Translations under genes and position numbers: made by a program
Shown here: piece by piece, positions 10,867 to 62,659 of the stretch
How the letters are laid out: each line of letters starts with the position of its first letter
Position numbering within the stretch: position 1 is the first letter of the stretch
Assembly (NCBI GenBank): GCA_035325445.1
Contig: DAOKZW010000011.1
Coordinates: 39,815-103,814, forward strand
Source of the DNA: Flavobacteriales bacterium
GTDB lineage: Bacteria; Bacteroidota; Bacteroidia; Flavobacteriales_F; PHOS-HE28
Reading direction: 5' to 3'
DNA: 64,000 bases
The notes under the pieces: generated by a model
What the model saw: the letters and a program-made list of their open reading frames with translations, nothing else
Database searches by the model: none
What the model was told of the DNA's origin: nothing

Positions 10867-13142
10867 GGCTGGTATTCCTTGGGTTTCCCTTTCAGGTCCA
10901 ATGCCAGGCGCAGGAAGAAGGTACGCCCGGTGGCCAAGGGCACGCTTCCGCTTCCCGGCCCGCTGTGCGCGCCTCCTCCGCTGATGGTGGCCTCGATGTT
11001 GGTGATATTGGCGATGTTCTTGCACCCGGCCTGCACGGCGAGCCTTTGGCCCCATACCTGTTTGGATACCGATGCGTCCACCATGAGGTACGGGGCGATG
11101 TGGCCCCGGGTAAGGCTATCGTCCGAAAGGGCGATGTAGCTCTGCTGCTCACCTTGGTACTTGGCGAAGAGGTTGATGCTCCACCCCTGCTTGCGCCAGT
11201 GCCTCGTGGCTTGCAGGTTCACTTGGGGCGAGAACTCGTAGACATTTTGGCCATCCTGCATGGCCAGGGTATCGCGCCTGCCGGTAATGGCCGTTCCTCC
11301 GCCGATGGTCCAATGTCCGGATTCCCAGGAAGCGCCCAGGCTTCCTCCCAAGGTTCGGAACTCGCCGATATTGGTGTAGGTGTACAGCAGGTTGCCCTCA
11401 TCCACGAGGGAGATCATGTTGCGCACGCGATCGTGGAATCCGGTGACCTCCCCCCGCAACACCCCGCGCTGCCGTGCTTTCCGGTAGTTGAGGGAAAGGG
11501 AATAGTTGTTGGATGATTCGGCCAGCAGCCCGGGATTGCCATGGATGTCGTGGTTGACGTCCACGAAATACAGGTGCAGTTCCTTGAGTGAAGGCGCCCT
11601 GAATCCTTGTGCCCACGATGCCCTCAGGGTGAAGGCCGTATCCAGCTGCAGGCGCATGTCCAACGAGGGAACGAGGGGGGCCCTGTACTGTGTGTTGCGG
11701 GCATAGCGCAACCCGGGCCTGACGACGAGTCGTTGCACGGGGTTCCATTGCGCGCTGGCGAATGCCGCATAATCGCCGATGGCCTGTTCGCTTCCATCGG
11801 CTATACGCGCCCCCACGGCTGTTTCCTGGTTGAGGTCGAGGCCGGCCTCGTAGGCCAGTCGCGTGCTATCGGCATGGCTGGCCCATGTTCCCCGAAAGTT
11901 GGTGAGCGCGAACCGGGAATTGTCATCCTCTCCCGGCACGGGCTTCCCTTCCAAGGTGGTGAGGTCGCGCAGCCACATGTCCCGCGTACGCTGGTAGCGG
12001 TCATGTGCGAAGAGGAAATTGGCCTGTCCCTTGGCCAATTTGCCTTGTGCGAAGAGCGCATTATCGATCCTTTGGGTATTGAATTCGGAGTCGAAGGCGG
12101 ATTCGAGGTAGGGTGCCCGCGGCCTCCCCCGGTCCACGATTCGGTCCTTCATCAGTTCGCCCTTGTAGCTCAGCGTCCATCGTTCGTTGATCTCGTACCG
12201 GTAGTTGAGCCTTCCGAAATACTGTTCCCTGGGCTTCCACTTCTGGTATCGGCCGGTGTCGGCCTCGTGGGTGGCAAAGTCGTACGTGGCGGGCTGCCCG
12301 GGCGTCCACCCTCCGAAGAAGTTGCGCCCCAAGCTGACGAGCAGGTCGTTGCTCCCGAATTTTTTCCCTGCGGCCACGGACAGGTTGAGGCGGCCCAGCT
12401 GTTCGGCGTAAGCAATGGCCTTAAGTGACGAGGATCCGCCTGCACTCTTTCGCGTGATGAGGTTGATGGTACCGGCGAGGGCGTTGGTGCCGTAGTTCAC
12501 GCTCAGGGGTCCTTCGAGGATCTCCACCCGATCGATGCCGGTGAGGTCGATCTGCGAGAGGTCCAGGTTTCCGTCCTGCCTGCCGATCACGGGCACTCCG
12601 TCCACGAGGATCTTCACATTCTCGCCCCCCAGGCCGCGCATGCTGAGGGAAGTTCCCAGCATATTGTCCTGCGCCAGGCGCATGTTGAGTTCCTGCCCCA
12701 GCACATCGCCCAGGTTTTGGGCGGCCATGCGTTGGATCTGCTCGGCATTCACCACGTGCATGCGCTGCACCGCCTTGTCCGCCGTGGTGGGGCGGTACTG
12801 GCCTGTAACCACCAGTTCGTCCAGGTTGAAGGCTTGGGCACGCTTGAGCAGGTAGGTGCGCGCCACGGCCGTCCGCAGGGTGTCCAGTACGGGCTCATAC
12901 CCGATGAAGTCGATCCGGATGGCCACTCCTTGGGCGGCCTCATGTGTTCCCCAAGGCACGGTGCATTCACCGGCGGGCCCGGCCACCGCAACACCCTTGG
13001 CCCCTCCATGGAGGGTATTCCAGAGCACATGGGCGTATGGGACAGGTTCCCGTGTGCCGCCATCGCGCACGATGATGGCCACTTGTGCCTGCCCGGCCAC
13101 GGTGGCCATCAGGGTGGTCAATACGAGCAAGGTCTGCCTCAT
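10863..13142 (-). CDS. TonB-dependent receptor (HmuR-like position)
   Basis: Signal peptide, CarboxypepD_reg-like N-domain and plug (DELVVTG...NLGDVLGQELNMR...VKILVDGVPVIGR...IDRVEILEGPLSVNYGTNALAGTINLITRK), then a long barrel. Start trimmed to ATG at 13142. Confidence 0.85.
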   Translation of the reverse strand: MRQTLLVLTTLMATVAGQAQVAIIVRDGGTREPVPYAHVLWNTLHGGAKGVAVAGPAGECTVPWGTHEAAQGVAIRIDFIGYEPVLDTLRTAVARTYLLKRAQAFNLDELVVTGQYRPTTADKAVQRMHVVNAEQIQRMAAQNLGDVLGQELNMRLAQDNMLGTSLSMRGLGGENVKILVDGVPVIGRQDGNLDLSQIDLTGIDRVEILEGPLSVNYGTNALAGTINLITRKSAGGSSSLKAIAYAEQLGRLNLSVAAGKKFGSNDLLVSLGRNFFGGWTPGQPATYDFATHEADTGRYQKWKPREQYFGRLNYRYEINERWTLSYKGELMKDRIVDRGRPRAPYLESAFDSEFNTQRIDNALFAQGKLAKGQANFLFAHDRYQRTRDMWLRDLTTLEGKPVPGEDDNSRFALTNFRGTWASHADSTRLAYEAGLDLNQETAVGARIADGSEQAIGDYAAFASAQWNPVQRLVVRPGLRYARNTQYRAPLVPSLDMRLQLDTAFTLRASWAQGFRAPSLKELHLYFVDVNHDIHGNPGLLAESSNNYSLSLNYRKARQRGVLRGEVTGFHDRVRNMISLVDEGNLLYTYTNIGEFRTLGGSLGASWESGHWTIGGGTAITGRRDTLAMQDGQNVYEFSPQVNLQATRHWRKQGWSINLFAKYQGEQQSYIALSDDSLTRGHIAPYLMVDASVSKQVWGQRLAVQAGCKNIANITNIEATISGGGAHSGPGSGSVPLATGRTFFLRLALDLKGKPKEYQP

Positions 13143-13258: not shown

Positions 13259-14497
13259 TTACTTGATCACCAGCTTTCCGGTGGCGATGCCTTTGGCCGA
13301 TTCAATCCGCATGATGTACACCCCGGCCGCCAGCCCGGACACATCGATAGTGCTGCGGGTCAGGCCTTGCAGGCCGGCGAGGTCCTTTGCCAATACTTGG
13401 GTCCCCGCGCCATTGTACACGTGCAGGAGGCCCTTGCCGTCGGGCAGGTCGAGCACCAGTTGCACTTGCCCTGCCGAGGCGGGGTTGGGATAGGCCAGCA
13501 CGGTGGCCGCGGCCGTTTCTTCCCGGATGCCGACCGCGCTCACCAGTTCCTTGGTGAAGCTCATGTTGCCGTTGGCGCTTCCACCATAACCCGTGAAGAT
13601 GATCTTCCAAATGTTGCCGGGCCGGTCCTTCACGAAGTAGGTGGTATCTGAGGCGATGACATAGCTGACCGCCTCAAAATCGTAGCGCTTCCAGTCGGCA
13701 CCCAACGTATTGATCTGGCTGCTGAACGGGGCGGTGGTCCAGGCGGCATCATCCGTGGGCACGCCGTTCACCTGCAGGGCCGTAACCAGCCTATTCTGGA
13801 GCACGCCTGCCACATTGTACGGGGTGGGCACGAAGTCCGTGTACTTGGTGAACAGCAGGTCCCAGCTGGAGCTGGCGGGCTCCCTGTCCATGGATGCGTC
13901 GGTCGTCATGGACCAGTAGGCGAAGTTCTTTCCGGCGAAGGCGGTTTTGTTCACTGCGGCATCCACTTCCGCCGTTCCATCGAGGTTGGCATAGGTGAAG
14001 CTGAACACTCCGTTGATCACGGAATTGATGCGGAGTTTCTTCCAGGTTTCGTCTTGGAATTCAATTGCGTAGACCTTATTGCCGAGCATCTGATGGTTGA
14101 TGGGGTTATACACGCCCCAACCCACATTGAGCCCTTCCGGCAGGTCCATGTCGTTGCCATGGTTCAGCGCCCCCATGTCCCACCGTTCCGGGTCGTTGTC
14201 CACCCGGGTCCAAGCCTCGGGATCGGGCACGGTCAGTGTGGCCCATTCGGCCGGGGCCACGGTTGTTTCATACGCTACAAGCCCTTTGGCCGTATTCACG
14301 CGCACGCCGGCCGTAAGCCCCGTCAATTCAAATGCCAGGTCCCATTCGCTCAATGGTGCCGCGCCGACCTCCCCATTCAACAGGCTATACCAGATCTGCT
14401 CTGCGTTGCCCCCGCCGGTGGAGACGGTCACGGGTGTTTGGGCCATGGTGATGTGGAAGCAGCCGGCCGCTGCCAGGAAGAGGAATGCTTTTTTCAT
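13259..14497 (-). CDS. HmuY-like domain protein with T9SS C-terminal sorting domain
   Basis: Signal peptide (MKKAFLFLAAAGCFHITMAQ). HmuY-like landmarks (SEWDLAFELTG...VRVN; GNIWKIIFTGYGG). T9SS tail (AYPNPASAGQVQLVL...GVYIMRIESAKGIATGKLVIK). Confidence 0.6.
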   Translation of the reverse strand: MKKAFLFLAAAGCFHITMAQTPVTVSTGGGNAEQIWYSLLNGEVGAAPLSEWDLAFELTGLTAGVRVNTAKGLVAYETTVAPAEWATLTVPDPEAWTRVDNDPERWDMGALNHGNDMDLPEGLNVGWGVYNPINHQMLGNKVYAIEFQDETWKKLRINSVINGVFSFTYANLDGTAEVDAAVNKTAFAGKNFAYWSMTTDASMDREPASSSWDLLFTKYTDFVPTPYNVAGVLQNRLVTALQVNGVPTDDAAWTTAPFSSQINTLGADWKRYDFEAVSYVIASDTTYFVKDRPGNIWKIIFTGYGGSANGNMSFTKELVSAVGIREETAAATVLAYPNPASAGQVQLVLDLPDGKGLLHVYNGAGTQVLAKDLAGLQGLTRSTIDVSGLAAGVYIMRIESAKGIATGKLVIK

Positions 14498-14690
14498 GGG
14501 GCACAAAAGACTGGCTGCCTGAAAAAGTCCGGGTCATGGAATTGTCGTTTATCCCCCGGTTCCGCCATGCTCGTGCCATAAAATACCGCGATCGCGGTAG
14601 CGCCGGCGGCCCGGCCGCAATTCGCAAGAGCTGTGAATGCCCTCCATCCCCTCCGCGTCGTGCTGTAACATTGCGATAGCTTGTCGATCC

Positions 14691-33224: not shown

Positions 33225-33268
33225 TGGTTTTCATGGCGTGGGGCGGTGGCCGCGAAAGTAGGCCGAAT

Positions 33269-33298
33269 GCCCCACTTTCCTCCCTATAACCCCACTTT
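33269..33298 (-). promoter_or_regulatory. Candidate MraZ operator: three 10-bp-phased direct repeats
   Basis: The minus strand reads AAAGTGGGGT-TATAGGGAGG-AAAGTGGGGC. It lies 44 nt upstream of the mraZ ATG and just downstream of the predicted -7 box. The MraZ operators I recall are phased (G)TGGG repeats. Confidence 0.5.
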
Positions 33299-33317
33299 GT
33301 TCAAAACTATTGCCTTG

Positions 33318-33348
33318 CAAACATAGTTCGTCTTCTTTCATATACCAA
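33318..33348 (-). promoter_or_regulatory. Candidate Bacteroidota sigma-A promoter of the dcw cluster (-33 TTG / -7 TAnnTTTG)
   Basis: The minus strand has TATGTTTG at 33325-33318 and TTG at 33348-33346, with a 20-nt spacer. It sits in the only AT-rich stretch of the region. Confidence 0.4.
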
Positions 33349-33584
33349 TAATCATACGAAAATAGGGCATTTCAGGTTGGTGGGAGAATGTGGGGCAAAA
33401 TGAACACAAGTGTCCTTTTCGGTCTTCCGGCCACCGCTGCCCCTCCTCCTCCGGAACCCTGGCTTCCAGTTGTTTGTATAAGGCCGACATTGCTCACCGC
33501 GAGCGTCGGAATGCAGGAAACACCATCTTCAGCCCCTGCCGCCCGATCGGGTCTATCGCGCATCTTCTTACTTTGCCGGAACTG

Positions 33585-34484
33585 ATGGCAAGCACCACGA
33601 ACGGCCGAGGCTTCCGGGCCAGCACCCTCCCGCGCCTGTTGCGGGTCCATCAATGGGTGAAGAATGGCTTCCTGTTCTTCCCGGCCTTCTTCGCCGGAGC
33701 CCTGTTCGAGCCCGGGGTGCTCTGGCGCACGTCGATGGGGTTCCTGTTGTTCAGTCTGGCGGCTTCCGCGATCTACTTGTACAACGACCTGCGGGATGTT
33801 GAGCAGGACCGCTTGCATCCGGAGAAAAGCAAACGCCCCATCGCGGCGGGCGAGGTCTTGCTCGGGGCCATTCCTTGGGCCAGCGGCCTGCTGGGGCTGG
33901 TGGCCTTGGGCGGCGCCTGGCTGCTGGAGCCGATGTTCGCCATGGTGGTAGGGACCTACTTGCTGATGAACTTCCTGTACACGGTGCGGCTGAAGCGCAT
34001 CCCGCTGGTGGATGTCACCATCATCGCCCTGGGCTTCATCCTGCGGATCTATGCCGGGGGCATCCTCGGGGGGGTGCCCAACTCGCATTGGATCTACCTG
34101 GTTACCTTCCTGCTGGCGCTGTTCCTGGCCTTGGCCAAGCGGCGCGACGACCTGGTCCAGGCCGGTGGCGGCACCGGCCTGCGCGCCAGCCTCAAGGGCT
34201 ACAACCTCGCCTTCGTGGATGCCTCCATGATCACCTTGGCGGTGCTAACGGTGCAATCCTATATCATGTACACGGTGAGCGAGGATGTCATCGCCCGGCT
34301 GGGCACCAACAAACTGTACATCACCAGTGGCTTCGTGGTGTTGGGCATGTTGCGCTACTTCCAGATCACCTTGGTGGAACTTCGGAGCGGATCACCTTCC
34401 AAGCTGGTCTATACCGACCCCGGGCTCCGCTTGGTGCTTCTGGGCTGGATCATCTCATTCGCCATCATCCTATATGCACGCTGA
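33585..34484 (+). CDS. UbiA-family prenyl-phosphate 5-phosphoribosyltransferase (DPPR-synthase-like)
   Basis: RVHQWVKNGFLFFPAFFAG and YLYNDLRDVEQDRLHPEKSKRPIAAG (NDxxDxxxD plus KRPIAAG, as in mycobacterial Rv3806c). Multiple TM segments. Start trimmed to ATG at 33585. Confidence 0.75.
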   Translation: MASTTNGRGFRASTLPRLLRVHQWVKNGFLFFPAFFAGALFEPGVLWRTSMGFLLFSLAASAIYLYNDLRDVEQDRLHPEKSKRPIAAGEVLLGAIPWASGLLGLVALGGAWLLEPMFAMVVGTYLLMNFLYTVRLKRIPLVDVTIIALGFILRIYAGGILGGVPNSHWIYLVTFLLALFLALAKRRDDLVQAGGGTGLRASLKGYNLAFVDASMITLAVLTVQSYIMYTVSEDVIARLGTNKLYITSGFVVLGMLRYFQITLVELRSGSPSKLVYTDPGLRLVLLGWIISFAIILYAR

Positions 34485-36576
34485 ATACGGCAGGTGGAGC
34501 AACTGGGGCTTGTACCCCGAGATCACCGGCACCGTTTGGTCGCCGGTCAACGAGGAGGAATCACGCCATTTGGTCGGCTCCCGCCCGGCCCTCGCTCCCC
34601 GCGGCAACGGGCGCAGCTACGGCGATGCCTCCCTGGGGCGCCGCATGGTCAGCGGCATGGGGCTGGCCGAGGTCTTCGAGCTGGACCGCGACAAAGGCAC
34701 CCTGCGCTGCAGTGCCGGTCTGCTGCTGGACGAGATCCTGCTGCGCATCGTGCCACAAGGCTTCTTCCTGCCCGTAACGCCCGGCACCCGCCTGGTGAGC
34801 ATCGGCGGGGCCATCGGCGGCGACATCCACGGCAAGAACCACCACGTGGACGGCAGTTTCTCCGCCTTTGTGGAAACGATGACGGTGCTGACCGGCGACG
34901 GCACGGCCGTGACCTGCTCACCCACGAAGAACAGCGATCTGTTTTGGGCCACGTGCGGCGGCATGGGGCTCACCGGCTTCATCCTGGAGGCCACCATCCG
35001 GTTGAAACCGATCACCTCGGCCTACATCCGCCAGCGCAGCATCAAGTGCGGTGACCTCGATGAACTTTTCGCCCAATTCGAGGAACACAAGGATGCCACC
35101 TACAACGTGGCCTGGATCGACCTGATGGCCAAGGGCCGCCACCAAGGGCGCTCCGTGCTGCTGCTGGGCGAACATGCCGAGGCATCGGAACTGAAAGGAG
35201 CGATGGCCAAGGCGCCCCTGCGCCCCCATGGCAAGACCCGGCTGAAGGTCCCGTTCTTCTTCCCCGGGTTCGTCCTTTCGCCCTTCACGGTCAAGATCTT
35301 CAACTGGCTGTACAACTGGAAGGCCGACGGCAGCGGCCGCCCCTCGTACGTGCATTACGGTCCCTACTTCCATCCGCTTGATGCCGTGCATGAATGGAAC
35401 AAGATCTACGGTCGGCGCGGCTTCGTGCAATACCAGTTCGTGGTGCCCTTGGCCAACGGCCGCGCCGTGATGGGCGAGGTGCTCGAGGAGCTTCGCCGGA
35501 ACGGGATGGTAAGCTTCCTGGCCGTGCTGAAGCGTTTCGGCCCCGGTGCGCCCGATGCCCTGCTGAGCTTCCCGGCGGAGGGCTATACGCTGGCCTTGGA
35601 CATCCCGCTGCGGAAAGGCACCCTCGACGTCTTGGACGAACTGGACCGCAATGTGGCCGATGCCGGCGGACGGATCTACCTGGTGAAGGACGCCCGGATG
35701 TCTGCTTCCATGATGGCGAAGACCTATCCGCGCCTGGATGAGTTCCGCGCCATCGCCCGGCGATATGGCCAAGGTCGGTTCCGTACGGCCCTTTCCGACC
35801 GGCTGGGCCTGCTGGATGAACCGGCCCCGGCCCCATTCTTCGACCCCAACCGTGTGCTGATCCTGGGGGCGGGATCGGGCATGGCCACGGCCTTGGCGCG
35901 GTGTTATGCCCGCGAAGGACACTCCTTGGTATTGGCCATGCGGGACCAAGCGGCAGCCCAGGCCCTGTGCGACGGCATACAGGCCGAAACGGGTGCGAGC
36001 TGCACCCCCGCGGCCTTCGATGCCGAGGACACGGGCAGCCACGCAGCCTTCTATGCAAAGCTGGATCCCCGGCCCGGCATCGTGGTCTGCGCCTTCGGCC
36101 TGCTGCCCGACCAGGCAACGGCGCAGGATGAGCCCGGCGGCGGCCTGAAGGCCATCGCGGTGAACTACACCGGTGCCGTAAGCATCCTGGAGGAAGCCGC
36201 CCGCGACCTGGAGCAACGCGGCGAGGGCTCCATCATCGGGATCTCCTCGGTGGCCGGTGATCGCGGGCGTGCCAGCAACTACTTCTATGGCAGCGCGAAG
36301 GCGGGCTTCACGGCCTATCTCAGCGGATTGCGCAACCGCCTCCAAGCCTCCGGCGTGCACGTCCTCACCGTCAAGCCGGGCTTTGTGCGCACGGCCATGA
36401 CCGAGGGTTTGCCGCTGCCGGCACCATTGACGGCCAGCGCGGAACAAGCCGCCGAAGCCATCCACAAGGCTTGGCGCAAGCGGCGCAACACCGCGTACGT
36501 GCTGGGCCGGTGGCGATGGATCATGCTCATCATCAAGCTGCTCCCCGAAGGGGTCTTCAAACGCCTGAAGCTTTGA
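34474..36576 (+). CDS. Fusion of a DprE1-like FAD oxidase and a DprE2-like short-chain dehydrogenase
   Basis: N-terminal half: PRGNGRSYGD, GGAIGGDIHGKNHH, FWATCGGMGLTGFI, YNVAWIDL, GFVQYQFVVP and GGRIYLVKDARM. C-terminal half: VLILGAGSGMATALA, ISSVAGDRG and YGSAKAG (SDR catalytic YxxxK). It overlaps the ubiA-like gene by 11 nt. Confidence 0.8.
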   Translation: MHAEYGRWSNWGLYPEITGTVWSPVNEEESRHLVGSRPALAPRGNGRSYGDASLGRRMVSGMGLAEVFELDRDKGTLRCSAGLLLDEILLRIVPQGFFLPVTPGTRLVSIGGAIGGDIHGKNHHVDGSFSAFVETMTVLTGDGTAVTCSPTKNSDLFWATCGGMGLTGFILEATIRLKPITSAYIRQRSIKCGDLDELFAQFEEHKDATYNVAWIDLMAKGRHQGRSVLLLGEHAEASELKGAMAKAPLRPHGKTRLKVPFFFPGFVLSPFTVKIFNWLYNWKADGSGRPSYVHYGPYFHPLDAVHEWNKIYGRRGFVQYQFVVPLANGRAVMGEVLEELRRNGMVSFLAVLKRFGPGAPDALLSFPAEGYTLALDIPLRKGTLDVLDELDRNVADAGGRIYLVKDARMSASMMAKTYPRLDEFRAIARRYGQGRFRTALSDRLGLLDEPAPAPFFDPNRVLILGAGSGMATALARCYAREGHSLVLAMRDQAAAQALCDGIQAETGASCTPAAFDAEDTGSHAAFYAKLDPRPGIVVCAFGLLPDQATAQDEPGGGLKAIAVNYTGAVSILEEAARDLEQRGEGSIIGISSVAGDRGRASNYFYGSAKAGFTAYLSGLRNRLQASGVHVLTVKPGFVRTAMTEGLPLPAPLTASAEQAAEAIHKAWRKRRNTAYVLGRWRWIMLIIKLLPEGVFKRLKL

Positions 36577-37163
36577 AGACCGTGGCCCTCTTCGACCTTG
36601 ACGGCACCATTACCCGTGCCGACACGATGCTGGAATACCTGGCCTATGCCCACGGGCGTGCCAAGCTGGCCTGGTGGCTGGCCCTTGTGTTTCCGGCATG
36701 GGTGCTGGCGAAGCTCGGGCTGGCACACCACGATACCCCTAAGCGGATGCTGGTCCGGTTGGCTTTCGCGGGGCAACAAGTGGCCGAACAGGAAAAGACC
36801 GCCCACCTGTTCACCCTTGACAAGATGCCCGGCCTCTTGCGGGAGGCCGCCTTGGAGCGCATTTGGGAACACAAGCGGCATGGGGCCACCGTCGTCATCG
36901 TCACGGCCTCCTGTTCGCTGTGGGTGGAACCGTGGTGCCGGCAGCACGGGCTTGAGCTGCTGGCCACGGAGCTTGAAACGGGGGATGGCCGCTATACGGG
37001 CCGGCTGCGCACCCCGAATTGCCGGGGAAAAGAAAAGGTGGCACGCATCCGCGCGCATCTGGGCGATCTCTCCGGTCTGGACATACACGCGTACGGGGAT
37101 ACGCCCGGCGACAAGCCCATGCTTGCCTTGGCCAGGGAACCTCACTACAAGCCATTCCGTTAG
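36573..37163 (+). CDS. HAD-IB family hydrolase (candidate phosphatase)
   Basis: VALFDLDGTIT (DxDxT), VVIVTAS and GDTPGDKPML. No in-frame ATG lies near the domain start. The likely start is TTG at 36573, overlapping the upstream TGA as TTGA, or alternatively GTG at 36582. Confidence 0.7.
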   Translation: MKTVALFDLDGTITRADTMLEYLAYAHGRAKLAWWLALVFPAWVLAKLGLAHHDTPKRMLVRLAFAGQQVAEQEKTAHLFTLDKMPGLLREAALERIWEHKRHGATVVIVTASCSLWVEPWCRQHGLELLATELETGDGRYTGRLRTPNCRGKEKVARIRAHLGDLSGLDIHAYGDTPGDKPMLALAREPHYKPFR

Positions 37164-37187
37164 AGGGGCCCGGAAGTCTCTTTCCTG

Positions 37188-37652
37188 ATGCTCCAGCCAC
37201 CACGCAACGGCATATCGTTCCGGCACTTGGCCGGCTTCGCGGCATTCCTCGCCTTGCTGATGGCCATCGCCGTCAAGATCACTTGGTACCCCATACCCCG
37301 CTCCTCCGTCGTAGGCACCTATGTGCGGCCCTCATCGGTCCTGCTGCCCATGTCCGGCCTGCCCGACACCGTTGTATTGTACGATGATGGCACGCTGATC
37401 TTCTCCGAGGCCACCTCGGGCGTTCTCTTCAAAGGGCCATGGCACTGGGATGAGCAGGAGCGCGTGGTCCGTACGGAGGTGCACCGTTGGGACCGCCAGT
37501 TAAGCATGCGCAGCACGCTGTTCGGCCCCCGCTTGGCCATGCGTATTTGCACCACCCCGGTCAACGAGGACCTGGAAGAACGCGACGACGAGGTCGATCT
37601 GCGCAGGATAGGTCCGCCCATTCCGGGCTTCCCCCACATGCCGTCCCCATGA
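37188..37652 (+). CDS. Hypothetical small membrane-anchored protein
   Basis: One N-terminal hydrophobic segment (LAGFAAFLALLMAIAV). An ATGA overlap joins it to the downstream GT-C-like gene. I recognise no motif. Confidence 0.5.
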   Translation: MLQPPRNGISFRHLAGFAAFLALLMAIAVKITWYPIPRSSVVGTYVRPSSVLLPMSGLPDTVVLYDDGTLIFSEATSGVLFKGPWHWDEQERVVRTEVHRWDRQLSMRSTLFGPRLAMRICTTPVNEDLEERDDEVDLRRIGPPIPGFPHMPSP

Positions 37653-39310
37653 GCCGCCCATCTCCCCAACGGACCATGGAGGGGCGCCAAGTGCAATGGC
37701 TGGCGATCATGTTCTTCCTCTTTATGCTGGTGCTGGCGTTCATACCGGCGATCCGGTCCGTATCGGGCCTCCCGTGGGGTTCCGTGATTGATTTCCATCG
37801 CGACGAATCCTTTGTGCGCGCCTTGCTCGAAGGCCATTATGGCGAGGACCCCACCTACTTGGGCGACCACCTTTGGTATCCGCCCCTGCTCACGTGGATC
37901 GAGTCCGCCCTGGTTGCCATCACCGGCTTGCCCCCCTCCACCATCATTGTTCAAATGGGGCCGTATGCCAACCTGCTGGCCCCGATCACTTTTTTCCTGA
38001 TGGCCTGGTACTTCCTGGGCGCGGGCCATGCGGCGCTGAGCACGGCCGCTTACCTGTTCTTCTCCGTGGGGCAGGAGCCGGGTTACGCCATCGCCACCTA
38101 TTCGCCGCGCTTGATCCCGGTATCCTTTGGCCAGGTTTTTTTCTACTTGGAGATCATCCTGGTCGATCGGGCCTTCCGCTCCACCCGCCTGATGCCCTCC
38201 CTATGGGCCGGTGCCGGCGCAGGCATCGCCTTTCTGGCCCATCCGGCCCCGGCGCTGATCGCGGTGCTCATATTCGCCGGGTACACCGCCGTGGATGTCA
38301 TCCGGGCCTTCCGGCAGGGCGACAAGGCCCACATACGGCGCCGTATTTCCGCCAGCTTCTTGGCCGGTGCTGCATTCCTGGTCACCACCTTGCCCATCAC
38401 GTGGTACATCATCGGCCACTACGGCATGCACACCATCAACCGGGCCGGCTTCCTGTTCACCTACTATGCGCTCACCCTGCACGACCTTGGGCTCTTCCTC
38501 AATTACAACCTCACCTTCTTCAGCATCATCGCCCTGCTGGGCGCCTGGCTTGTTTGGCGCCGGCAAGGCCAGGACACCATGGCGCCCGGTTCCCGACGGA
38601 TGCTGCTATCCTGGCTGCTGATCAGCTTGGTGCTGTTCGCCTACAGCTACACGGTAAGCGTGCTGGACAAGCATGCGGGCCTCAGCCTGCCCGGCACGGT
38701 GCCCACCTTCCACTTCTTCTTTTACATGAAAGCCACCATGGCCCTGTTTGCGGGCATCGCGGGCTGGGAGCTCTTTGCATGGGCCTGGCGCCTGGTCACC
38801 CGCACCTCGTCGTGCACCCCTCTGGCCCTGCAGCCCAAGCCCGCACTGGTCCTTTTCTCCATCACCGCATTGGCGTGCACGCTGAACTACCCGTCTTACG
38901 CCACCCGCCGCGATGTGCGGCTATCGCACAACCGCGACCGGGCCTTTTTGGAAAACAACCCGGGCATTGAAGTGGCCGAAACATTGGGCACGTTGCTGCC
39001 CTGGGGGGCGGTGGTGCTCTGCGAGATCAAGCACAGCGGCTGGCCCGTGCTGCCCACGGCGCGCCACGTGGTGGCCACCGAATCCACCTTCGGCAACCCC
39101 TACGTGGACCAGCGGCAACGGGAGACCGACAACGCCCTGCTGCTGCAAGGCATGAGCGCCCCTCGCGGCGATACGCGGGGGCTGCTGGAGCAATACGGGG
39201 TGACCAACCTGCTGGTGAGCCCCGAGGAACTGGAACAGATGCCCTTGGCGCATGGCTGGTTCCCGCAGCAGGTTTTTCGCAATGATGGATTCGTGCTGTT
39301 GGGCCGGTAA
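37649..39310 (+). CDS. Polytopic membrane protein, GT-C-fold glycosyltransferase-like
   Basis: About a dozen hydrophobic segments by eye. There is an acidic motif in the first loop (VIDFHRDESF) and a roughly 130-aa soluble C-terminal domain. The architecture and operon context resemble ArnT/Emb/Aft/TfpW-type enzymes. Start trimmed to ATG at 37649. Confidence 0.55.
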   Translation: MSRPSPQRTMEGRQVQWLAIMFFLFMLVLAFIPAIRSVSGLPWGSVIDFHRDESFVRALLEGHYGEDPTYLGDHLWYPPLLTWIESALVAITGLPPSTIIVQMGPYANLLAPITFFLMAWYFLGAGHAALSTAAYLFFSVGQEPGYAIATYSPRLIPVSFGQVFFYLEIILVDRAFRSTRLMPSLWAGAGAGIAFLAHPAPALIAVLIFAGYTAVDVIRAFRQGDKAHIRRRISASFLAGAAFLVTTLPITWYIIGHYGMHTINRAGFLFTYYALTLHDLGLFLNYNLTFFSIIALLGAWLVWRRQGQDTMAPGSRRMLLSWLLISLVLFAYSYTVSVLDKHAGLSLPGTVPTFHFFFYMKATMALFAGIAGWELFAWAWRLVTRTSSCTPLALQPKPALVLFSITALACTLNYPSYATRRDVRLSHNRDRAFLENNPGIEVAETLGTLLPWGAVVLCEIKHSGWPVLPTARHVVATESTFGNPYVDQRQRETDNALLLQGMSAPRGDTRGLLEQYGVTNLLVSPEELEQMPLAHGWFPQQVFRNDGFVLLGR

Positions 39311-40908: not shown

Positions 40909-41238
40909 CTACTTCTTCAGGTCCGGCAGCATGTGCTCGGCGAAGTAATCCGCGAAGTCGCGCATCTGGGCCGCCATCTTACCCTCGTTGGTGGCGCGCT
41001 CGAATGTGTCGGCCAACGTGAGGATGTTCTGATGGAAGAAGGCCTTCATTTCATCGGTGGTCATCTCCTTGGTCCAAAGGTCGATGCGCAACGTATTGAG
41101 CTCCTGGGCATCCCAGAAGCTCAACAACATGGCTTTTCCAACGCCTTGCTCCCGGCCGTCCTGGGCCTTCCATTCGATGTGCTCGGGCACGTGGTTTTCA
41201 TCGGTGTGCACACGGATGATGATGTCTGATTCCTTCAT
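40909..41238 (-). CDS. gldC: Gliding motility protein GldC
   Basis: DENHVPEHIEWKAQDG...AMLLSFWDAQELNTLRIDLWTKEMTTDEMKAFFHQ...ADTFERAT. It is adjacent to gldB. Start trimmed to ATG at 41238. Confidence 0.85.
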   Translation of the reverse strand: MKESDIIIRVHTDENHVPEHIEWKAQDGREQGVGKAMLLSFWDAQELNTLRIDLWTKEMTTDEMKAFFHQNILTLADTFERATNEGKMAAQMRDFADYFAEHMLPDLKK

Positions 41239-41319
41239 GGGTCGTGGTGGTGCCATGGTCTGCGGGCTTATACCAAGGCCGGTCATGTCCACCGGTCCCC
41301 TGCCCTTTCACTTCACGGC

Positions 41320-42360
41320 TTACCTGGGTTTATAGGTTTTCAAGATCGCCTGCGCATCACTCTTGTTGAACAGGTCCGCAAAGGTTGTTCCCGGGTGCGC
41401 ACGCAGATAGCTGGCCACCATGCGGTACCCGATCCACTCGCCAATATGGCCGGGGCTTTCCCGTGGCAAACCCGGGGTGAAGGGGCCGTCATTCATGAAC
41501 CGGTCCACCACCTTGGGGTCTTTGGAATACAGCAGTTCCTTGCCCACGATCTCGCGCCAGATATTGAACTCGTTCTCCTCGCACCACTTCAGCTGCCCCG
41601 GGGTGAAGGCGAACAGCAAGACGGGGTCCGTGCCGGGCATCAGGGCATCGAGCAAGGCCATCACCTTGCCGATCACGACCAGGTTCTCCAATAGGCTTTC
41701 GCCGCGCGTATCCCATGTGTAATGCACTTGGAGCCATCCCTTCACCACGCTGGGCACCAGCATTTCGGGGCGCATCCGGTCCTTGCGGTATTGCGGGAAT
41801 ATCTCGGGGGCCAGGTATTGCACCACCGGGCTGTCCTTTCCCACGAACCATTCCACCCCGAAACCCAACACGCTGTCGGTGGGCAGCACACCAAAATTGA
41901 AGCCCGAGTTGTAGGCCACTATCCGCGGTATGAGGCTATCGGGGAAAATGGCCTTCAGCCGTCCGAAGGCTTCGTTGAAGGCAGCCTGCTCCTTGGCCAT
42001 ATCGCCGAATACGCTGTCCGCTCGCTGCTGCACGGCGCTCCAGTCGTGGTCGTGGGTAAAATGGATCAAGGCCATGGGAAGGCGTGGATCATCATAAGCC
42101 GCGGCCTGGAGCACATCTTCCACATAGGTCTTGTAAAACTCGCCGTAGGTGGCGTACAGGCGCATGCTGAAGTTGCCCGATGAATCGTTGGCCGCACGGA
42201 ACAGGTCCTGGTCCAACCGCTCGATGCGGATGTGTGCGTCCACCGGTTTGATCTTCCTCAGGGAGGCCTCATTGCCGCCGCAAGCGGCCAAGCCCAGCAG
42301 GACCGCCCCTGCCGCGAGGGGAGCCCAGTAGCCCCGAGTGCACTTACCTTTGGCCATCAT
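41320..42360 (-). CDS. gldB: Gliding motility lipoprotein GldB
   Basis: Lipobox (LLGLAACGG). The size and the gldB-gldC-nadE neighbourhood match Flavobacterium. Conserved blocks (RIERLDQDLF, YNSGFNFGV, NIWREIV). Confidence 0.8.
   Translation of the reverse strand: MMAKGKCTRGYWAPLAAGAVLLGLAACGGNEASLRKIKPVDAHIRIERLDQDLFRAANDSSGNFSMRLYATYGEFYKTYVEDVLQAAAYDDPRLPMALIHFTHDHDWSAVQQRADSVFGDMAKEQAAFNEAFGRLKAIFPDSLIPRIVAYNSGFNFGVLPTDSVLGFGVEWFVGKDSPVVQYLAPEIFPQYRKDRMRPEMLVPSVVKGWLQVHYTWDTRGESLLENLVVIGKVMALLDALMPGTDPVLLFAFTPGQLKWCEENEFNIWREIVGKELLYSKDPKVVDRFMNDGPFTPGLPRESPGHIGEWIGYRMVASYLRAHPGTTFADLFNKSDAQAILKTYKPR
42345..42352 (+). promoter_or_regulatory. Candidate -7 box (TACCTTTG) for the beta-barrel protein gene
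   Basis: Exact TAnnTTTG match 28 nt upstream of the ATG at 42381. No convincing -33 TTG is present. Confidence 0.3.
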
Positions 42361-53303: not shown

Positions 53304-55535
53304 CTACCGCTTCACGAACCGGGCGATACCGCCATCTTCCAACCGCAGGAGATAGAGGCCGGAAGGCAGGGAAGCGATATCCACGGAAGTACGGGTCCCA
53401 TTTGCTGTTCCCGCAAGCAGGATGCGGCCCTGTGTGTCGTACACCGTGAAAGGAGCAGGTGCCGTTCCCAGCCTTTCCAGGATGAGCCGGTCCGTAGCAG
53501 GATTGGGATGCAGGCGGATCGTCGTGTTGCTTTGATCCGTGATGTCCGTGTGGATCACCACGAAGGGCGCTGACACGGAGGATGCACAGCCAAGCGCATC
53601 CGTCACCACCACGGTGTAGCTGCCCTCTTCCAAGGCCTCGATGCAGGGCGTGTCTCCACCAGTTATCGGCTCGCCGCCCAAGTACCACTGGACCGTGCCG
53701 GAGAGGTCGGTGCAGAGGTTGTCGCCTACTTCCGTGATCACCGGCGTGGGTGTGTTTTGCGGGCAGGCCACCTGGGCGCGGAAGACGTCGCCCCAACGCC
53801 CCACGGCCACGATGGCGCCATCCACGTACGCGGCGTCCATGATCTGGGCGTTGCTGATCGACGGCAGAATGGTGGTCCAGGTCGCCCCGCCGTCAGTGCT
53901 CATCTTCGCCTTTCCCCCGCCGTCCACGGCATAGCCGGTATCGGGATTGGTGAAGATGATGCTTACGGTTGTCATGGACGTGCCATCCATCACGGTCCAG
54001 GTGTCGCCGCCGTCGGTGGTGCGGAGGTTGCGGGTCCAGCCGAGGGTATCGTTAAGGAAGAAGATGGTGTTTCCGCCGCTGGTGCCGGGCATGGACTGCC
54101 AAGTGAGGCCGCCGTCCGTGCTTCGGAAGGCCATGCCGTTCTCACCCACTGCATAACCCTGCATGGAGTTGACGAACCACAGGTCGTTGATGGTGATGTT
54201 CCCGATGTCCAGAACGCGCGTCCACGTGCTGCCACCGTTGTCCGTGCGGTAGATGCCGCCGTTGATTGAGCCGCCGCCCACGAAGTGGACGTTGGCATCC
54301 ATGGTCCAGGTGCAACGGATGGCGATGCTGGGACCGGTGCGGTTGGTCCGTGTGGAAAAGGCATCCGTGGTGGTGGCGAAGGCACCGCTACCGCCGCCGA
54401 GGCAGCCGACGCCCGACGGTGTGAGGTGGATGCCCAGCCCGCCGTTGCCCGCCTTTACCCAGTTGCGGCCACCGTCGGTGGTGCGCAACAGGCCGTTATC
54501 CAGTCCGCCATTGGCCACATAGCCCACGGCCACGCCCACCTGATCGTTCTGGAAGGCCACCTTGTTGAGCAGGGTGTGCCAAGTGCCTTCCCGCCGCAGC
54601 TCCCAGGTGATCCCGTAGTCGCTGGTGCCGTAGATGCGGCCATCGGTGCCGGTGATGCCGGTGCCTTGGGGGCTGAGCGCGATGCTTTGATGGACGGTGG
54701 AACTGGTGCCCACGGTCTGTGCTGACCAGGTGATCCCGCCATCGGCGCTGCGCACGATGCGGCCGCTGTTGCCTGAGGCCAGTATCACGTTGCCCATGAC
54801 GCACAGGCCCAACAGGCTTTGGGTGACGCCCGAGCTGGCCGCCACCCAGGTTTCGCCACCGTCGGTGGTGCGGTGGATGTTGCCGCTGTTGCCCACCACC
54901 ACACCGGTGAGCGCATCGCTGAAGTGGATGGCCCGCGAATGCGTGGGGGCTGCGTCGGTCGTGGGCGCCCACGTGAGGCCGCCGTCGGTGCTGCGGATCA
55001 CGCCCACGGCGTACACGCATGCGTAGGCCGTGTCCGGCGAAGGCATGGACAGGTCGGTGATGGTGTAGCTGGTGCCGACGCCGGTCGGAACCTCGGTCCA
55101 GGTGTCCCCGGCATCGGTGGTGCGGTAGATGCGGCCCGAATTATTGCCGATCAGGCCCAGCGTGTCATTGGCGAAGGCCACGGCGGTGAGCTGCCCGAAG
55201 GTGGCGTTCGTCAGGGTGACATAGCTCTCAAAGCCATTGTCGGTGCGGTACAGGCGCCCGCTGCTTGCCGCCACGATGCCGCGCTGCTCGTCCCACATGT
55301 GGATGGCGCCCGGCGGGTTGATCGCCAATTGGTTCATCCGTTCCCAGGTGTAGCCGCCGTCGCGGGTGCGCAGGATGTCGGAGAGTGTTTTGTCCAAGGC
55401 GTAGCCCAACGTGGAGTTCATCATGCGTACAGCGGAGAATTCGCTGCGGGTCTTCACGCCGGTGGTCAGTTCCCATTGTTGGGCGGAAGCCAGAATGGTT
55501 GCAAGGGAGAGAAGGAGAGTGGAAAGAAGGCGCAT
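53304..55535 (-). CDS. BNR/Asp-box beta-propeller repeat protein with T9SS C-terminal sorting domain
   Basis: Signal peptide. At least 10 Asp-box repeats (xTxDGGxTW). A Cys-rich Ig-like module. T9SS tail (LHPNPATDRLIL...GLYLLRLEDGGIARFVKR). Start trimmed to ATG at 55535. Confidence 0.8.
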   Translation of the reverse strand: MRLLSTLLLSLATILASAQQWELTTGVKTRSEFSAVRMMNSTLGYALDKTLSDILRTRDGGYTWERMNQLAINPPGAIHMWDEQRGIVAASSGRLYRTDNGFESYVTLTNATFGQLTAVAFANDTLGLIGNNSGRIYRTTDAGDTWTEVPTGVGTSYTITDLSMPSPDTAYACVYAVGVIRSTDGGLTWAPTTDAAPTHSRAIHFSDALTGVVVGNSGNIHRTTDGGETWVAASSGVTQSLLGLCVMGNVILASGNSGRIVRSADGGITWSAQTVGTSSTVHQSIALSPQGTGITGTDGRIYGTSDYGITWELRREGTWHTLLNKVAFQNDQVGVAVGYVANGGLDNGLLRTTDGGRNWVKAGNGGLGIHLTPSGVGCLGGGSGAFATTTDAFSTRTNRTGPSIAIRCTWTMDANVHFVGGGSINGGIYRTDNGGSTWTRVLDIGNITINDLWFVNSMQGYAVGENGMAFRSTDGGLTWQSMPGTSGGNTIFFLNDTLGWTRNLRTTDGGDTWTVMDGTSMTTVSIIFTNPDTGYAVDGGGKAKMSTDGGATWTTILPSISNAQIMDAAYVDGAIVAVGRWGDVFRAQVACPQNTPTPVITEVGDNLCTDLSGTVQWYLGGEPITGGDTPCIEALEEGSYTVVVTDALGCASSVSAPFVVIHTDITDQSNTTIRLHPNPATDRLILERLGTAPAPFTVYDTQGRILLAGTANGTRTSVDIASLPSGLYLLRLEDGGIARFVKR

Positions 55536-55656
55536 GGGGGTAAAGATCGGGGTTGGGGAGGAAGTGGGCAGTGAACAGTCCGCCTGCGGCCGGACAGTGA
55601 ACAGTAGCGCCGACCCAGCGGGTCGACCTACCGGATGGATGCGGTGCCTGGGCCCT

Positions 55657-57099
55657 TCACCACACCACCTTCGCCGCAACGCGTTGTCCGCCCTGTTGCA
55701 GGCTGATCAGGTGCAGACCGGGCGCCAGGTCCACCTTTATCCGGACTGGGCCGCCCCCGACGCTGACTTGGGCCTGGTGCACCAGCTGCCCGGCGCCGTT
55801 GTGGATCAACAGGTGGGCTTTACCGGACGTGTGGAAGGGATCTGCAAGCACCAGCTCGCCGTTTGCGTGATCCACGATGACGTTCCATACGTTGGCCGGA
55901 TCCTGTTCCAAGATCCCCGTGACCCCTTGCTTCAGCCGGACCAACTGCCGGTATTGCATTTCGGTATCGATGAATCCGAAGCGCCCGCCCACCAGGATCT
56001 TGCCGTCATTCTGCACGGCAATGCTGCGCACGAAGGCTGTGTTGTCGGGGTCTGTCGGCAAGATGCCTTGGCCCAGGCCGAAACCGTCATCGCGGCTACC
56101 GTTTGCCTGAAGCATGGTCAGGCGGTTCGGGCCGCCCACATTGGGGCTGTACATGGTGGAGGTGTATTCGCCGCCTGCCATGATGTGCCCATCGGGCAGC
56201 ACGTTCACCGCCCGCACCGATGCATAAGGGTAGAACGGTGAGGCGAATCCGGCGTCCCGCGTGCCGTCCAGGTTAAGCCGAATGAGGCCGTTCGCGGGTT
56301 GGCCGTCATGGTAGTTGAAGCTGCCCGCCACCAACAGTTTGCCATCGGGTTGCATGGCCAAGGCCCGGGCCGGGCCGCCGACGAGGCCGGGGTCGTTGTC
56401 CATGGAAGGATCATACGGTCCAGCGGAACTGAGCAAGGCCACACGGCCGCACATGTTGCCATTGTACTGGGTGAACTTGCCGGCGCAGAGGATGCTTTCG
56501 TCCGGCAGGATGTGCAGGTCGTACACCGCATCGTTGAAGCCGGTGCCGATATCAAAGTCCAGGTCCAGCGAGCCGTCTTCGTTGAAACGGGTGATGTAGG
56601 GCTGGCTGTGCCCGTAGCAGATGAAGAAATCACCGGCGGCGACCACCTTGTTGTCCTTGTGCAGCGCCACAGCGTTCACGGCGTTGTTGATGGAATTGGG
56701 CGGGATGTTGAAGCTGGCATCGCGCAGGCCGTTGGGCAATAGCCGGGCTACGAAGTACACCGGGCTGCCGTTGTAGGTCACGAAATTCCCGGCGATGAGG
56801 ATGCGCCCGTCGGGCATCAGGTCGATGTCCGATACCAGATGGTTCGGGCCGATACCCCCGGGATTCCATGCGGGATCCACGGTGCCGTCGCTGTTCAGCC
56901 GGACCAGGTTCTGCTTGCCGCTTCCCGCATAGTTGGTGAAGGATCCGCCCACGAGGATCTTCCCGTCTGGCTGCACCACCACCTTGTTGACCAGGCTGCT
57001 GGGCGGGACCGCGAGGAAGTCGTAGTCGATGATGGGAAGCTGTTGGGCCTGAACGAGTGTGGCGAGGGCCAGTGTGGCCGGGAGTAGGAGGGGGCGCAT
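55657..57099 (-). CDS. Delta-60-repeat protein with T9SS C-terminal sorting domain
   Basis: Signal peptide (MRPLLLPATLALATLVQAQ). Repeated blocks of the form QPDGKILVGGSFTNY...LVRLNSDGTxDxxF. T9SS-like tail (...GLHLISLQQGGQRVAAKVVW). Start trimmed to ATG at 57099. Confidence 0.75.
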   Translation of the reverse strand: MRPLLLPATLALATLVQAQQLPIIDYDFLAVPPSSLVNKVVVQPDGKILVGGSFTNYAGSGKQNLVRLNSDGTVDPAWNPGGIGPNHLVSDIDLMPDGRILIAGNFVTYNGSPVYFVARLLPNGLRDASFNIPPNSINNAVNAVALHKDNKVVAAGDFFICYGHSQPYITRFNEDGSLDLDFDIGTGFNDAVYDLHILPDESILCAGKFTQYNGNMCGRVALLSSAGPYDPSMDNDPGLVGGPARALAMQPDGKLLVAGSFNYHDGQPANGLIRLNLDGTRDAGFASPFYPYASVRAVNVLPDGHIMAGGEYTSTMYSPNVGGPNRLTMLQANGSRDDGFGLGQGILPTDPDNTAFVRSIAVQNDGKILVGGRFGFIDTEMQYRQLVRLKQGVTGILEQDPANVWNVIVDHANGELVLADPFHTSGKAHLLIHNGAGQLVHQAQVSVGGGPVRIKVDLAPGLHLISLQQGGQRVAAKVVW

Positions 57100-60726: not shown

Positions 60727-61476
60727 CTAAAGCGTCGGGTTCAACAGCTTCCCGCTTTCCACCACCTTGTGCAAGTAAGGCTCGGTGCGGGTGGCCTCCA
60801 TGGCCGCAATGTGCTTCATGCTGTGGCAATCGCTGCCCACCAGCTCGTACCAGCCCTTGTCCACGATGCGCTCGGCGGCCTTTTGGGTGGATGGCCCGTA
60901 GGCCCCGCCCAAGGCGATGATGTTCAGCTGGAAAAGCACGTTGCGGTCCTTGAGCTGCTCCATGGTGTCCATGTTCACATGCCAATACTGGTAGCGCTCG
61001 GGGTGGGCCAGCACCGGTGTGTAGCCTTGCGTCTGCATCTCGAACACCATGTTCATCAGCACATTGGGCTCGCTGATGAACGGCAGCTCGAAAAGCACCA
61101 TGTCGTGGCCGATGGTCAGCACTTTCTGGGCGGCCACCTTCTCTTGCAAGGCATGGTCCAGGTAGTACTCGGCGGCCGCGTCTACCTCCATGGGCAACTT
61201 GGCCTCCTGCACCGCCCGGCGCAGCTTCTCCAGTCCGCCCAGGATCACTTCCGGCGGGTTCTTGTAGCCGTCCGCCATGCTGTGCGGCGTGGTGATCACC
61301 TTGCGGTAGCCCAGGTCGTACATGGCTTGCAGCAGTTCCATGCTGGCTGCCAGGTCCGGCGCGCCATCATCAATGCCGGGGATGAAGTGTGAATGGACAT
61401 CACACTTCAGCACGCCGTAGTCCAGCGGCGGTACCGCTTGCCTCTTTTTGCCGAAAAGGTTGCTGAACAATCCCAT
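60727..61476 (-). CDS. CpsB/CapC-type PHP-domain tyrosine-protein phosphatase
   Basis: DVHSHFIPGIDDGA, VITTPH and LAHPERY. Start trimmed to ATG at 61476, with a TAATG junction to rfbB. Confidence 0.8.
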   Translation of the reverse strand: MGLFSNLFGKKRQAVPPLDYGVLKCDVHSHFIPGIDDGAPDLAASMELLQAMYDLGYRKVITTPHSMADGYKNPPEVILGGLEKLRRAVQEAKLPMEVDAAAEYYLDHALQEKVAAQKVLTIGHDMVLFELPFISEPNVLMNMVFEMQTQGYTPVLAHPERYQYWHVNMDTMEQLKDRNVLFQLNIIALGGAYGPSTQKAAERIVDKGWYELVGSDCHSMKHIAAMEATRTEPYLHKVVESGKLLNPTL

Positions 61477-62534: not shown

Positions 62535-62659
62535 GTGCTGGGCTTGCCGGTCTTCCCGGGGTCGTTCTTCCTTTCCTTTCAGATTGAACGGGTGGATGCG
62601 CTGGCCGGCCCTCTCTTCCGGGTTCTCCTTCGGGATGAAGGTCTCGAAGGCCATCCGGT

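Follow-up and report, generated by a model that had tools for sequence, protein, structure and literature searches.

The stretch analysed here, 64,000 nucleotides of contig DAOKZW010000011.1 from a Flavobacteriales bacterium (G+C content 62%; hereafter the window), carries five co-directional genes on its forward strand, g1 to g5, packed within positions 33585-39310 (Table 1). g1 and g2 overlap by 11 nt (the g2 ATG is at 34474 and the g1 stop codon ends at 34484), g2 and g3 have the TTGA at 36573-36576 in common, 24 nt separate g3 from g4, and g4 and g5 have the ATGA at 37649-37652 in common. Coordinates and sequence thus agree with a first-pass annotation of this DNA, which had remarked on the common orientation and on these junctions. 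Homologues of all five genes are kept in the same order in other genomes, so we take g1-g5 to be real genes. Judging from protein families, a structural model of g5 and analogy with known systems, we think it likely that they form one operon for extracytoplasmic D-arabinofuranosylation, with polyprenyl-phospho-D-arabinofuranose (polyprenyl-P-D-Araf) made by the products of g1, g3 and g2 and transferred in the periplasm by g5 together with g4.

Table 1. Features of the g1-g5 locus, in window positions
Feature	Positions	Strand	Description
g1	33585-34484	+	UbiA-family polyprenyl-phosphate phosphoribosyltransferase (DPPR-synthase type), 299 aa
g2	34474-36576	+	DprE1-DprE2 fusion, 700 aa; FAD oxidase ~34576-35811, SDR reductase ~35842-36573
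g3	36573-37163	+	HAD-IB phosphatase, 196 aa; presumed polyprenyl-P-ribose-5-phosphate phosphatase
g4	37188-37652	+	Single-pass membrane protein, 154 aa; extracytoplasmic domain of ~110 aa (inferred topology); conserved partner of g5
g5	37649-39310	+	GT-C-fold polytopic glycosyltransferase, 553 aa, unclassified family; presumed polyprenyl-P-Araf-dependent transferase
mraZ-g1 intergenic region	33225-33584	.	360 bp between divergent mraZ and g1

All five family calls of the first-pass annotation hold when the proteins are compared with Pfam, NCBIfam and PDB sequences and, through Foldseek, with PDB structures. g1 had been likened to the mycobacterial decaprenyl-phosphate phosphoribosyltransferase (DPPRS) Rv3806c on account of its NDxxDxxxD and KRPIAAG motifs, and the peptide YLYNDLRDVEQDRLHPEKSKRPIAAG does occur in it. 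Pfam assigns g1 to UbiA (3e-19), and its best NCBIfam matches are three DPPRS models at 223, 192 and 133 bits, with all other prenyltransferases at 49 bits or less. Among PDB sequences, the Mycobacterium tuberculosis Rv3806c structure 8j8j matches residues 16-292 at E = 4.6e-36 (128 bits) with the NDxxDxxxD...RPIAAG motif in register; the next match, an archaeal UbiA protein, reaches E = 1e-5 and 28 bits. Both comparisons place g1 with DPPRS rather than with MenA, UbiA or chlorophyll synthases, and its NDxxDxxxD motif is that of the UbiA-family polyprenyl-phosphate phosphoribosyltransferases (PPPRS).

The g2 protein is a DprE1-type flavin adenine dinucleotide (FAD) oxidase fused to a DprE2-type short-chain dehydrogenase/reductase (SDR), as had been proposed. 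Residues 35-446 match the DprE1 structure 4aut at E = 2.9e-84 (287 bits; the next FAD protein reaches 57 bits), and residues 457-699 match the DprE2 structure 21gq_C over its full length at E = 1.5e-29. The DprE1 and DprE2 models are also its best specific NCBIfam matches: the DprE1 model NF053785 gives 414 bits over positions 39-445 of 449 and the DprE2 model NF053786 gives 197 bits, while the SDR model PRK07102, with a cutoff of 267 bits, gives 299 bits. The FAD domain therefore groups with DprE1 and not with GlcD or gulonolactone oxidases. Readable in the sequence are GRSYGD, a lysine equivalent to Lys418, the Gly-rich GAGSGMA and YGSAK. Such fusions are common, with at least 100 fused homologues and nearly 8000 matches at E ≤ 1e-50. 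Around residue 375, g2 has Ala at the position of Cys387 of M. tuberculosis DprE1, the covalent target of benzothiazinones, and from this substitution the DprE1 domain is expected to be insensitive to that class of compounds.

g3 belongs to the HAD-IB phosphatases (Pfam PF12710, 4e-35; TIGR01490 at 125 bits, above the cutoff of 98) and has the motifs DLDGT and GDTPGD. It shares its fold class with the HAD "PRP" domain of Citrobacter youngae ORF15 (PMC11127046); with the HAD portion of the HAD-UbiA fusion model PRK08238 it has only a marginal match (E = 0.003). Its presumed substrate, polyprenyl-P-ribose-5-phosphate, is suggested by its position in the operon and by analogy with the ORF15 domain.

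The GT-C character of g5 is apparent in its fold. A g5-family profile, scanned against one genome per GTDB species, found 25 loci. Across 25 family members nothing in Pfam or NCBIfam matches, even at E ≤ 1; no Pfam family recurs at that level that would place g5 in the AftA sequence family (CAZy GT85), and the family profile found no GT-C chain among PDB sequences. An AlphaFold (AF2) model built on 25 homologues has a predicted local distance difference test (pLDDT) score of 91.5 and a predicted template modelling (pTM) score of 0.91. Its top Foldseek match in the PDB is AftA, the priming arabinofuranosyltransferase of mycobacteria (8if8; E = 7e-10, TM 0.59-0.62), at a sequence identity of 14-16%, so that the likeness lies in the fold only. 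Later matches include STT3/OST, AglB, ArnT, PglB, ALG9/12, EmbA/B/C, AftD and PMT; the best 33 are all GT-C enzymes, and the first protein of another kind appears at E ~0.1 or worse. The polytopic core of the model thus has the helix arrangement of a GT-C enzyme, in agreement with the label "GT-C-like" given earlier.

In the g5 family alignment D48, R51 and D67 are invariant and D52 is nearly so. They lie between the first transmembrane helix (residues 10-38) and the next (residues 39-109 in between), on or just after a loop helix at 47-60, which gives g5 a conserved acidic residue in its first long extracytoplasmic loop, as is typical of GT-C enzymes. In AftA the catalytic Asp128 is found in the first long periplasmic loop, held by Arg132 (PMC10265970), and by analogy D48 and R51 are likely the equivalents of this pair. 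A small alpha/beta domain (~420-553) ends the protein, as in many GT-C enzymes, and there is no carbohydrate-binding module (CBM). A hidden Markov model of the family, run against 1.84 billion cluster representatives, gave 1012 matches at E ≤ 1e-3 and 475 at E ≤ 1e-30. Among ten of these clusters that were checked, one has a taxon name (Flavobacteriales), three are called "hypothetical protein" and six are nameless. This is a sizeable family that bears no Pfam or NCBIfam name and is presumably distinct from that of C. youngae ORF12 (GT136).

g4 had been described as a small membrane protein, and the prediction agrees: one hydrophobic helix (residues ~11-36) is followed by ~110 residues predicted to be mostly beta strand. 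It has no relative in Pfam, NCBIfam or the PDB, and a profile of 18 sequences also found nothing among PDB sequences. A conserved motif, GTY...DG...W.WD..E..R...WDR.IR...GP.L, runs through its homologues. By tblastn or blastp, 20 of the 25 genome loci have a g4 homologue immediately before the g5 homologue, and in closer Flavobacteriales relatives the pairing is near-universal. Two separate lineages have g4 joined in frame to the C-terminal end of the HAD phosphatase, giving products of 344 and 346 residues (L030-32, L040-49, L053 and L054; compared loci carry L numbers). This fusion connects g4 with the donor pathway, and it fits a g4 whose N terminus is cytoplasmic and whose conserved domain would be periplasmic.

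The 25 scan loci come from 20 Flavobacteriales metagenome-assembled genomes (MAGs), two "Bacteroidetes bacterium" MAGs and three others (Acidobacteriota, Polyangiaceae and Gemmataceae). The full g1-g5 order occurs in four of them (L010, L011, L013 and L014) and in metagenomic contigs (L035-39 and L050/51). The block as a whole has at least four contexts: beside mraZ (L010, L011, L013, L035-39, L050/51), in L014, in L030/L053/L055 and in L040-49. The five-gene set is thus kept in related genomes and across several unrelated flanks, and its recurrence in several contexts marks it as a unit independent of the dcw cluster. The arrangement of the window, in which the operon lies between mraZ and a hydrolase-yihA-gldC-gldB series, is confined to closer relatives. 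Every Flavobacteriales operon seen has the DprE1/DprE2 fusion. In the Gemmataceae MAG (L029), the g5 homologue is immediately preceded by a UbiA gene of the g1 type; tblastn found no DprE1/E2 match within 10 kb at this locus.

The observed protein families and folds, the operon structure, the conserved linkage and the HAD-g4 fusion seen elsewhere support the interpretation already offered by the first-pass annotation, of a donor set of the polyprenyl-P-arabinose type together with a GT-C enzyme that would use the donor outside the membrane. In the pathway we propose, g1 would start the lipid-linked donor as a UbiA-type phosphoribosyltransferase and g3 would take off the 5-phosphate. The two halves of g2 would then act in turn on C2, DprE1 oxidising and DprE2 re-reducing it, so as to convert polyprenyl-P-ribofuranose into polyprenyl-P-arabinofuranose. 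A transporter encoded outside the operon would flip the lipid-linked sugar, and g5, working with g4, would move Araf to a periplasmic acceptor, most likely a surface glycan, with D48 and R51 on the helix of the first loop playing the role of AftA Asp128 and Arg132. We favour this pathway because g1 is far closer to DPPRS than to other UbiA enzymes and g2 matches DprE1 and DprE2 over their whole lengths; because g3 is a HAD-IB protein and a HAD phosphatase does this step in C. youngae (PMC11127046); and because the best solved match of the g5 fold is AftA, itself dependent on a polyprenyl-phospho-D-arabinose (DPA), with invariant D48 and R51 in the equivalent loop. The overlapping or abutting genes, their recurrence in at least four contexts, the HAD-g4 fusion, the UbiA-g5 pair of Gemmataceae and the genomes with a possibly shared donor (see below) point the same way.

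All enzymatic steps of the proposed pathway are inferred, as are its lipid, the configuration of the sugar, the topology and role of g4, and the acceptor. Several observations weigh against it. g1 and both halves of g2 score below the NCBIfam equivalog cutoffs, by a small distance for g1 (cutoff 234 for its top model, NF008977) and by more for the DprE1 and DprE2 halves of g2 (cutoffs 500 and 250). The AlphaFold model of g4, made from a three-sequence alignment, was unusable (pLDDT 44). In the literature searched, D-arabinose is not reported from any Flavobacteriales glycan. None of the lineages examined has a flippase gene of the MATE, SMR or GtrA type within the operon or next to it, and no transporter adjoins it in L030 or L040. 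The locus had been called a complete pathway with its transferase; the donor genes and the GT-C gene are indeed all there, but "complete" overstates the case because a flippase gene is absent from the operon. Lastly, many g4-g5 pairs stand away from donor genes (L001, L005-9, L012, L015-18 and L022), and a distant member of the g5 family (L052) stands alone.

The detached pairs fall into at least two clades. In one, at ~50% identity, the pair is divergent to a gene for an Rce1-like/CPBP intramembrane protease (L001, L005, L006, L008, L009, L012 and L016; ~8400-9500, minus strand). A gene with the same protease Pfam domain, which may be a homologue, is found two genes upstream of the donor operon of the fused type in L030, L053 and L055. 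In the other clade, 37-41% identical to the window g5, the pair directly follows a gene for a CusB-like HlyD adaptor with a heavy-metal-binding domain (L015, L017, L020, L022, L024 and L025; ~6000-11600), with P-type ATPase or CusA/outer-membrane efflux (OEP) genes nearby. This neighbourhood may link the GT-C module to metal efflux, or it may be merely an inherited gene order. D48, R51 and D67 of g5 are invariant in attached and detached copies alike. Two genomes have both the donor operon and a detached pair, JAMLHB01 (L011 and L022) and CAVPLQ01, the latter with the operon at 553-563 kb and the pair at 268-290 kb of contig_26730; so it would look were several transferases to draw on a single donor, as they do in mycobacteria. 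Downstream of detached pairs we also noted a T9SS (type IX secretion system)-cargo gene in L017 and, in L001 (12104-20722, plus strand), an open reading frame of more than 2870 residues that runs off the contig end.

A more elaborate version of the proposed pathway is also conceivable, and we offer it as a speculation that is unlikely to be right. Here g4 and g5 would be a two-subunit transferase in which g4 bridges cytoplasmic donor synthesis and periplasmic transfer. The HAD-g4 fusion would tether the last cytoplasmic enzymes to the GT-C protein, to which the lipid-linked sugar would pass, perhaps crossing the membrane in doing so, with no need of a separate flippase. The detached copies beside copper/silver efflux genes would arabinosylate another envelope target, possibly under metal stress.

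Exactly 360 bp lie between the start of mraZ at 33224 (minus strand) and the ATG of g1. On the mraZ side, elements conserved in relatives comprise TAnnTTTG boxes of the Bacteroidota type at 33309 and 33325 (minus strand), followed by GTGGG repeats 20 nt apart, all within 33275-33325. The GTGGG repeats seem to resemble MraZ operator boxes. Two further elements are kept in relatives, GGTGGGAGAATGTGGGG at ~33378-33395 (plus strand) and TTACTTTG ~10 nt before the g1 ATG. The promoter-like boxes on the mraZ side and the conserved element before g1 are ~250 bp apart. A scan for sigma-70 promoters and terminators gave hits at chance level only, as expected for Bacteroidota.

The alternatives to the proposed pathway differ in the acceptor, the sugar, the donor or the cellular role. 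As to the acceptor, a surface polysaccharide or lipopolysaccharide (LPS) is somewhat more likely than a protein. That the same machinery serves O-arabinosylation of a surface or secreted protein is an alternative we regard as rather unlikely. In its favour, TfpW, likewise a GT-C enzyme, takes a donor of this type and glycosylates a protein with it (bioRxiv 10.1101/2020.04.19.049825). It would suit an operon that lies outside any O-antigen or capsule locus in the window, L014, L030 and L040, a g5 that has only its small C-terminal domain in place of a CBM such as ORF12 and the Emb proteins have, and the T9SS-cargo gene of L017. On the other side, no gene for a candidate acceptor is consistently adjacent and no pilin gene flanks the operon. 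In Chitinophagaceae, moreover, the donor homologues sit inside a Wzx/Wzy capsule-type locus (L033), and all systems characterised by Kelly et al. modify polysaccharides (PMC11127046). We find it distinctly unlikely that the sugar is something other than arabinofuranose, whether because the donor stays at polyprenyl-P-ribofuranose or because g2 yields another epimer or a keto-sugar. The sub-cutoff scores of both g2 halves leave room for such a product, as does the Gemmataceae locus with its UbiA gene and g5 homologue and no nearby DprE1/E2 match; ORF12, which takes Ribf or Xylf donors, shows that a GT-C enzyme of this sort can be promiscuous (PMC11127046). Set against this are the end-to-end matches of g2 to DprE1 and DprE2 with GRSYGD, the Lys418 equivalent and YxxxK all kept, the conservation of the fusion throughout the Flavobacteriales operons, and the finding that DprE1/E2 homologues occur specifically in loci of Araf-containing glycans (PMC11127046).

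It is also conceivable that g4-g5 is a general-purpose GT-C module acting on another lipid-linked donor and that its place after g1-g3 is mere gene order. Most scanned g4-g5 pairs are indeed detached, next to protease or metal-efflux genes, and L052 stands by itself. Still, the start and stop codons overlap and the block persists amid four unrelated sets of flanking genes; where HAD and g4 are fused, g4 is physically joined to the donor pathway; a UbiA gene adjoins a g5 homologue in another phylum; at least two genomes with detached pairs also have the donor operon; and the putative active-site residues are the same in attached and detached copies. Taken with these points, the idea seems to us very improbable. 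A role in cell division or peptidoglycan synthesis, exerted through a control region shared with mraZ and the dcw cluster, is the least credible of all. The first-pass annotation had tentatively drawn an envelope link from this shared region, and the operon is divergent from mraZ at 360 bp both in the window and in close relatives, with repeats like MraZ boxes in between. Adjacency to mraZ is found only in those close relatives, however, and in L014, L030/L053/L055 and L040-49 the operon has no dcw genes nearby, which leaves the link unsupported; nor do the promoter-like boxes on the mraZ side and the element before g1 lie close to each other. Because the same block recurs away from mraZ, we rejected a dcw-linked role.

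The wider setting of the operon is that of a gliding/T9SS Bacteroidota genome, as had been claimed from the sequence, and this is borne out by gldC and gldB and by two proteins with T9SS sorting domains. Upstream of the operon lies mraZ; downstream follow genes for an alpha/beta hydrolase and a YihA-type GTPase and then gldC (40909-41292, minus strand) and gldB (41320-42360, minus strand), whose syntenic counterparts in relatives have GldC-like and GldB_lipo Pfam domains. The C-terminal sorting domains are on proteins encoded at 13259-14533 and 53304-55706 (both minus strand), one HmuY-like and one a BNR/sortilin-type propeller. Its nearest relatives are, without exception, "Flavobacteriales bacterium" MAGs. 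At 3470-5581 (plus strand), after genes for a LuxR-type response regulator and a TPR histidine kinase, lies a gene for a CotH-kinase-family protein that also has a proprotein-convertase P-domain. At the window edge (60727-63997, minus strand) are capsule/polysaccharide-type genes, among them a CpsB/CapC-like phosphatase and an NDP-sugar 4,6-dehydratase/epimerase, with a further reading frame that has no annotation at 62660-63997 (minus strand). This set could encode part of a candidate acceptor glycan; it is ~21 kb from the operon.

The proposed pathway, if correct, would mean that some Flavobacteriales carry D-arabinofuranose on a component of their envelope. Characterised D-Araf glycans or DPA-type pathways from Bacteroidota did not turn up in literature searches, in keeping with an earlier statement that no product or acceptor is characterised there. 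The principle is not new, since Kelly, Duong, Nothof, Lowary and Whitfield (PNAS 2024) already showed such systems to be widespread; new here are the unclassified GT-C family, the g4 partner and the lack of a flippase in cis. A candidate GT-C family of about 1000 clusters at 50% identity is now tied to a likely donor, and the fusion of g4 to the phosphatase offers a handle on how a lipid-linked donor reaches its transferase, a question that is open in all DPA-type systems, including those of mycobacteria. The organisms are uncultured, and the value of the locus lies in a clear, testable prediction and in a GT-C family with a curious partner.

Among known systems, the mycobacterial and corynebacterial pathway has counterparts of the donor enzymes, g1 resembling Rv3806c and g2 resembling DprE1 and DprE2. 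Structurally g5 comes closest to AftA, and its first long periplasmic loop likewise bears an Asp/Arg pair, but no similarity to AftA or the Emb proteins can be detected in its sequence. Unlike in mycobacteria, DprE1 and DprE2 are fused, the phosphatase is of the HAD-IB and not the PAP2 type (Rv3807c), the Cys387 position is Ala, and the host is Gram-negative and has no arabinogalactan; the carrier lipid is probably C55 rather than the mycobacterial C50. The group IV pilin system of Pseudomonas aeruginosa (TfpW with PsPA7_6246-6249) shares a Gram-negative host, a donor of the DPA type and a dedicated GT-C enzyme; TfpW acts on the pilin and has been proposed for more than one step, including translocation (bioRxiv 10.1101/2020.04.19.049825). 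There the transferase accompanies its substrate gene, whereas neither a pilin nor a TfpX-like gene adjoins the operon here, its neighbours being mraZ, the hydrolase and the GTPase.

The first-pass annotation listed Corynebacterineae, the P. aeruginosa pilin and Azorhizobium as the established systems. That list is out of date, for Kelly et al. describe a "three-component" extracytoplasmic pentofuranose glycosylation that is widespread, with C. youngae O1/O2 as prototype (PMC11127046). It takes a PPPRS that carries a HAD phosphatase domain, a flippase of the MATE or SMR family and a GT-C enzyme that founds GT136. The examples come from Proteobacteria, Actinobacteria, a Bacillus and a phage, and neither text nor supplement mentions Bacteroidota (PMC11127046). 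The window operon is like these systems in that the donor would be made from phosphoribosyl pyrophosphate on polyprenyl phosphate by a UbiA-type PPPRS and its 5-phosphate removed by a HAD-family phosphatase, with DprE1/E2 as auxiliary epimerases and the last transfer left to a GT-C protein that databases label hypothetical. Here too the GT-C gene is encoded with the donor genes, to which it is translationally coupled. It differs in that no MATE/SMR flippase gene is part of the locus, the phosphatase is separate or fused to g4 and not to the PPPRS, g5 presumably belongs to another, unclassified family and has no CBM, and a conserved single-pass partner, g4, is added. The operon also stands alone, outside an O-antigen or capsule locus, and in a different phylum.

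Within Bacteroidota, the DPPRS group is reported to be absent from the cultured marine Flavobacteria genera surveyed in PMC9235831; the UbiA-297/EboC proteins of marine Flavobacteria (PMC9235831), which we considered as a lead, belong to a different UbiA subgroup. A second version of the system is found in Sediminibacterium (Chitinophagaceae; L033/L034, 1-17500), where a HAD-UbiA fusion of 445 aa is followed by a DprE1-DprE2 fusion 42% identical to g2 and then by a polytopic GT-C-like protein of 521 aa with EGYDDEFY after its first helix. The genes sit among those for Wza, Wzx, Wzy, Wzi and an initiating transferase. Kinship between g5 and the 521-aa protein was rejected, as hhalign found no relation. 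The two loci share the phylum, the fused DprE1-DprE2 and a GT-C-like gene directly downstream, but in Sediminibacterium HAD and UbiA are fused as in C. youngae ORF15, the set is part of a polysaccharide locus and g4 is missing. The Sediminibacterium locus is a Bacteroidota system of the type described by Kelly et al., of which we found no description, and together with the window operon it indicates that Bacteroidota hold at least two architectures of such systems.

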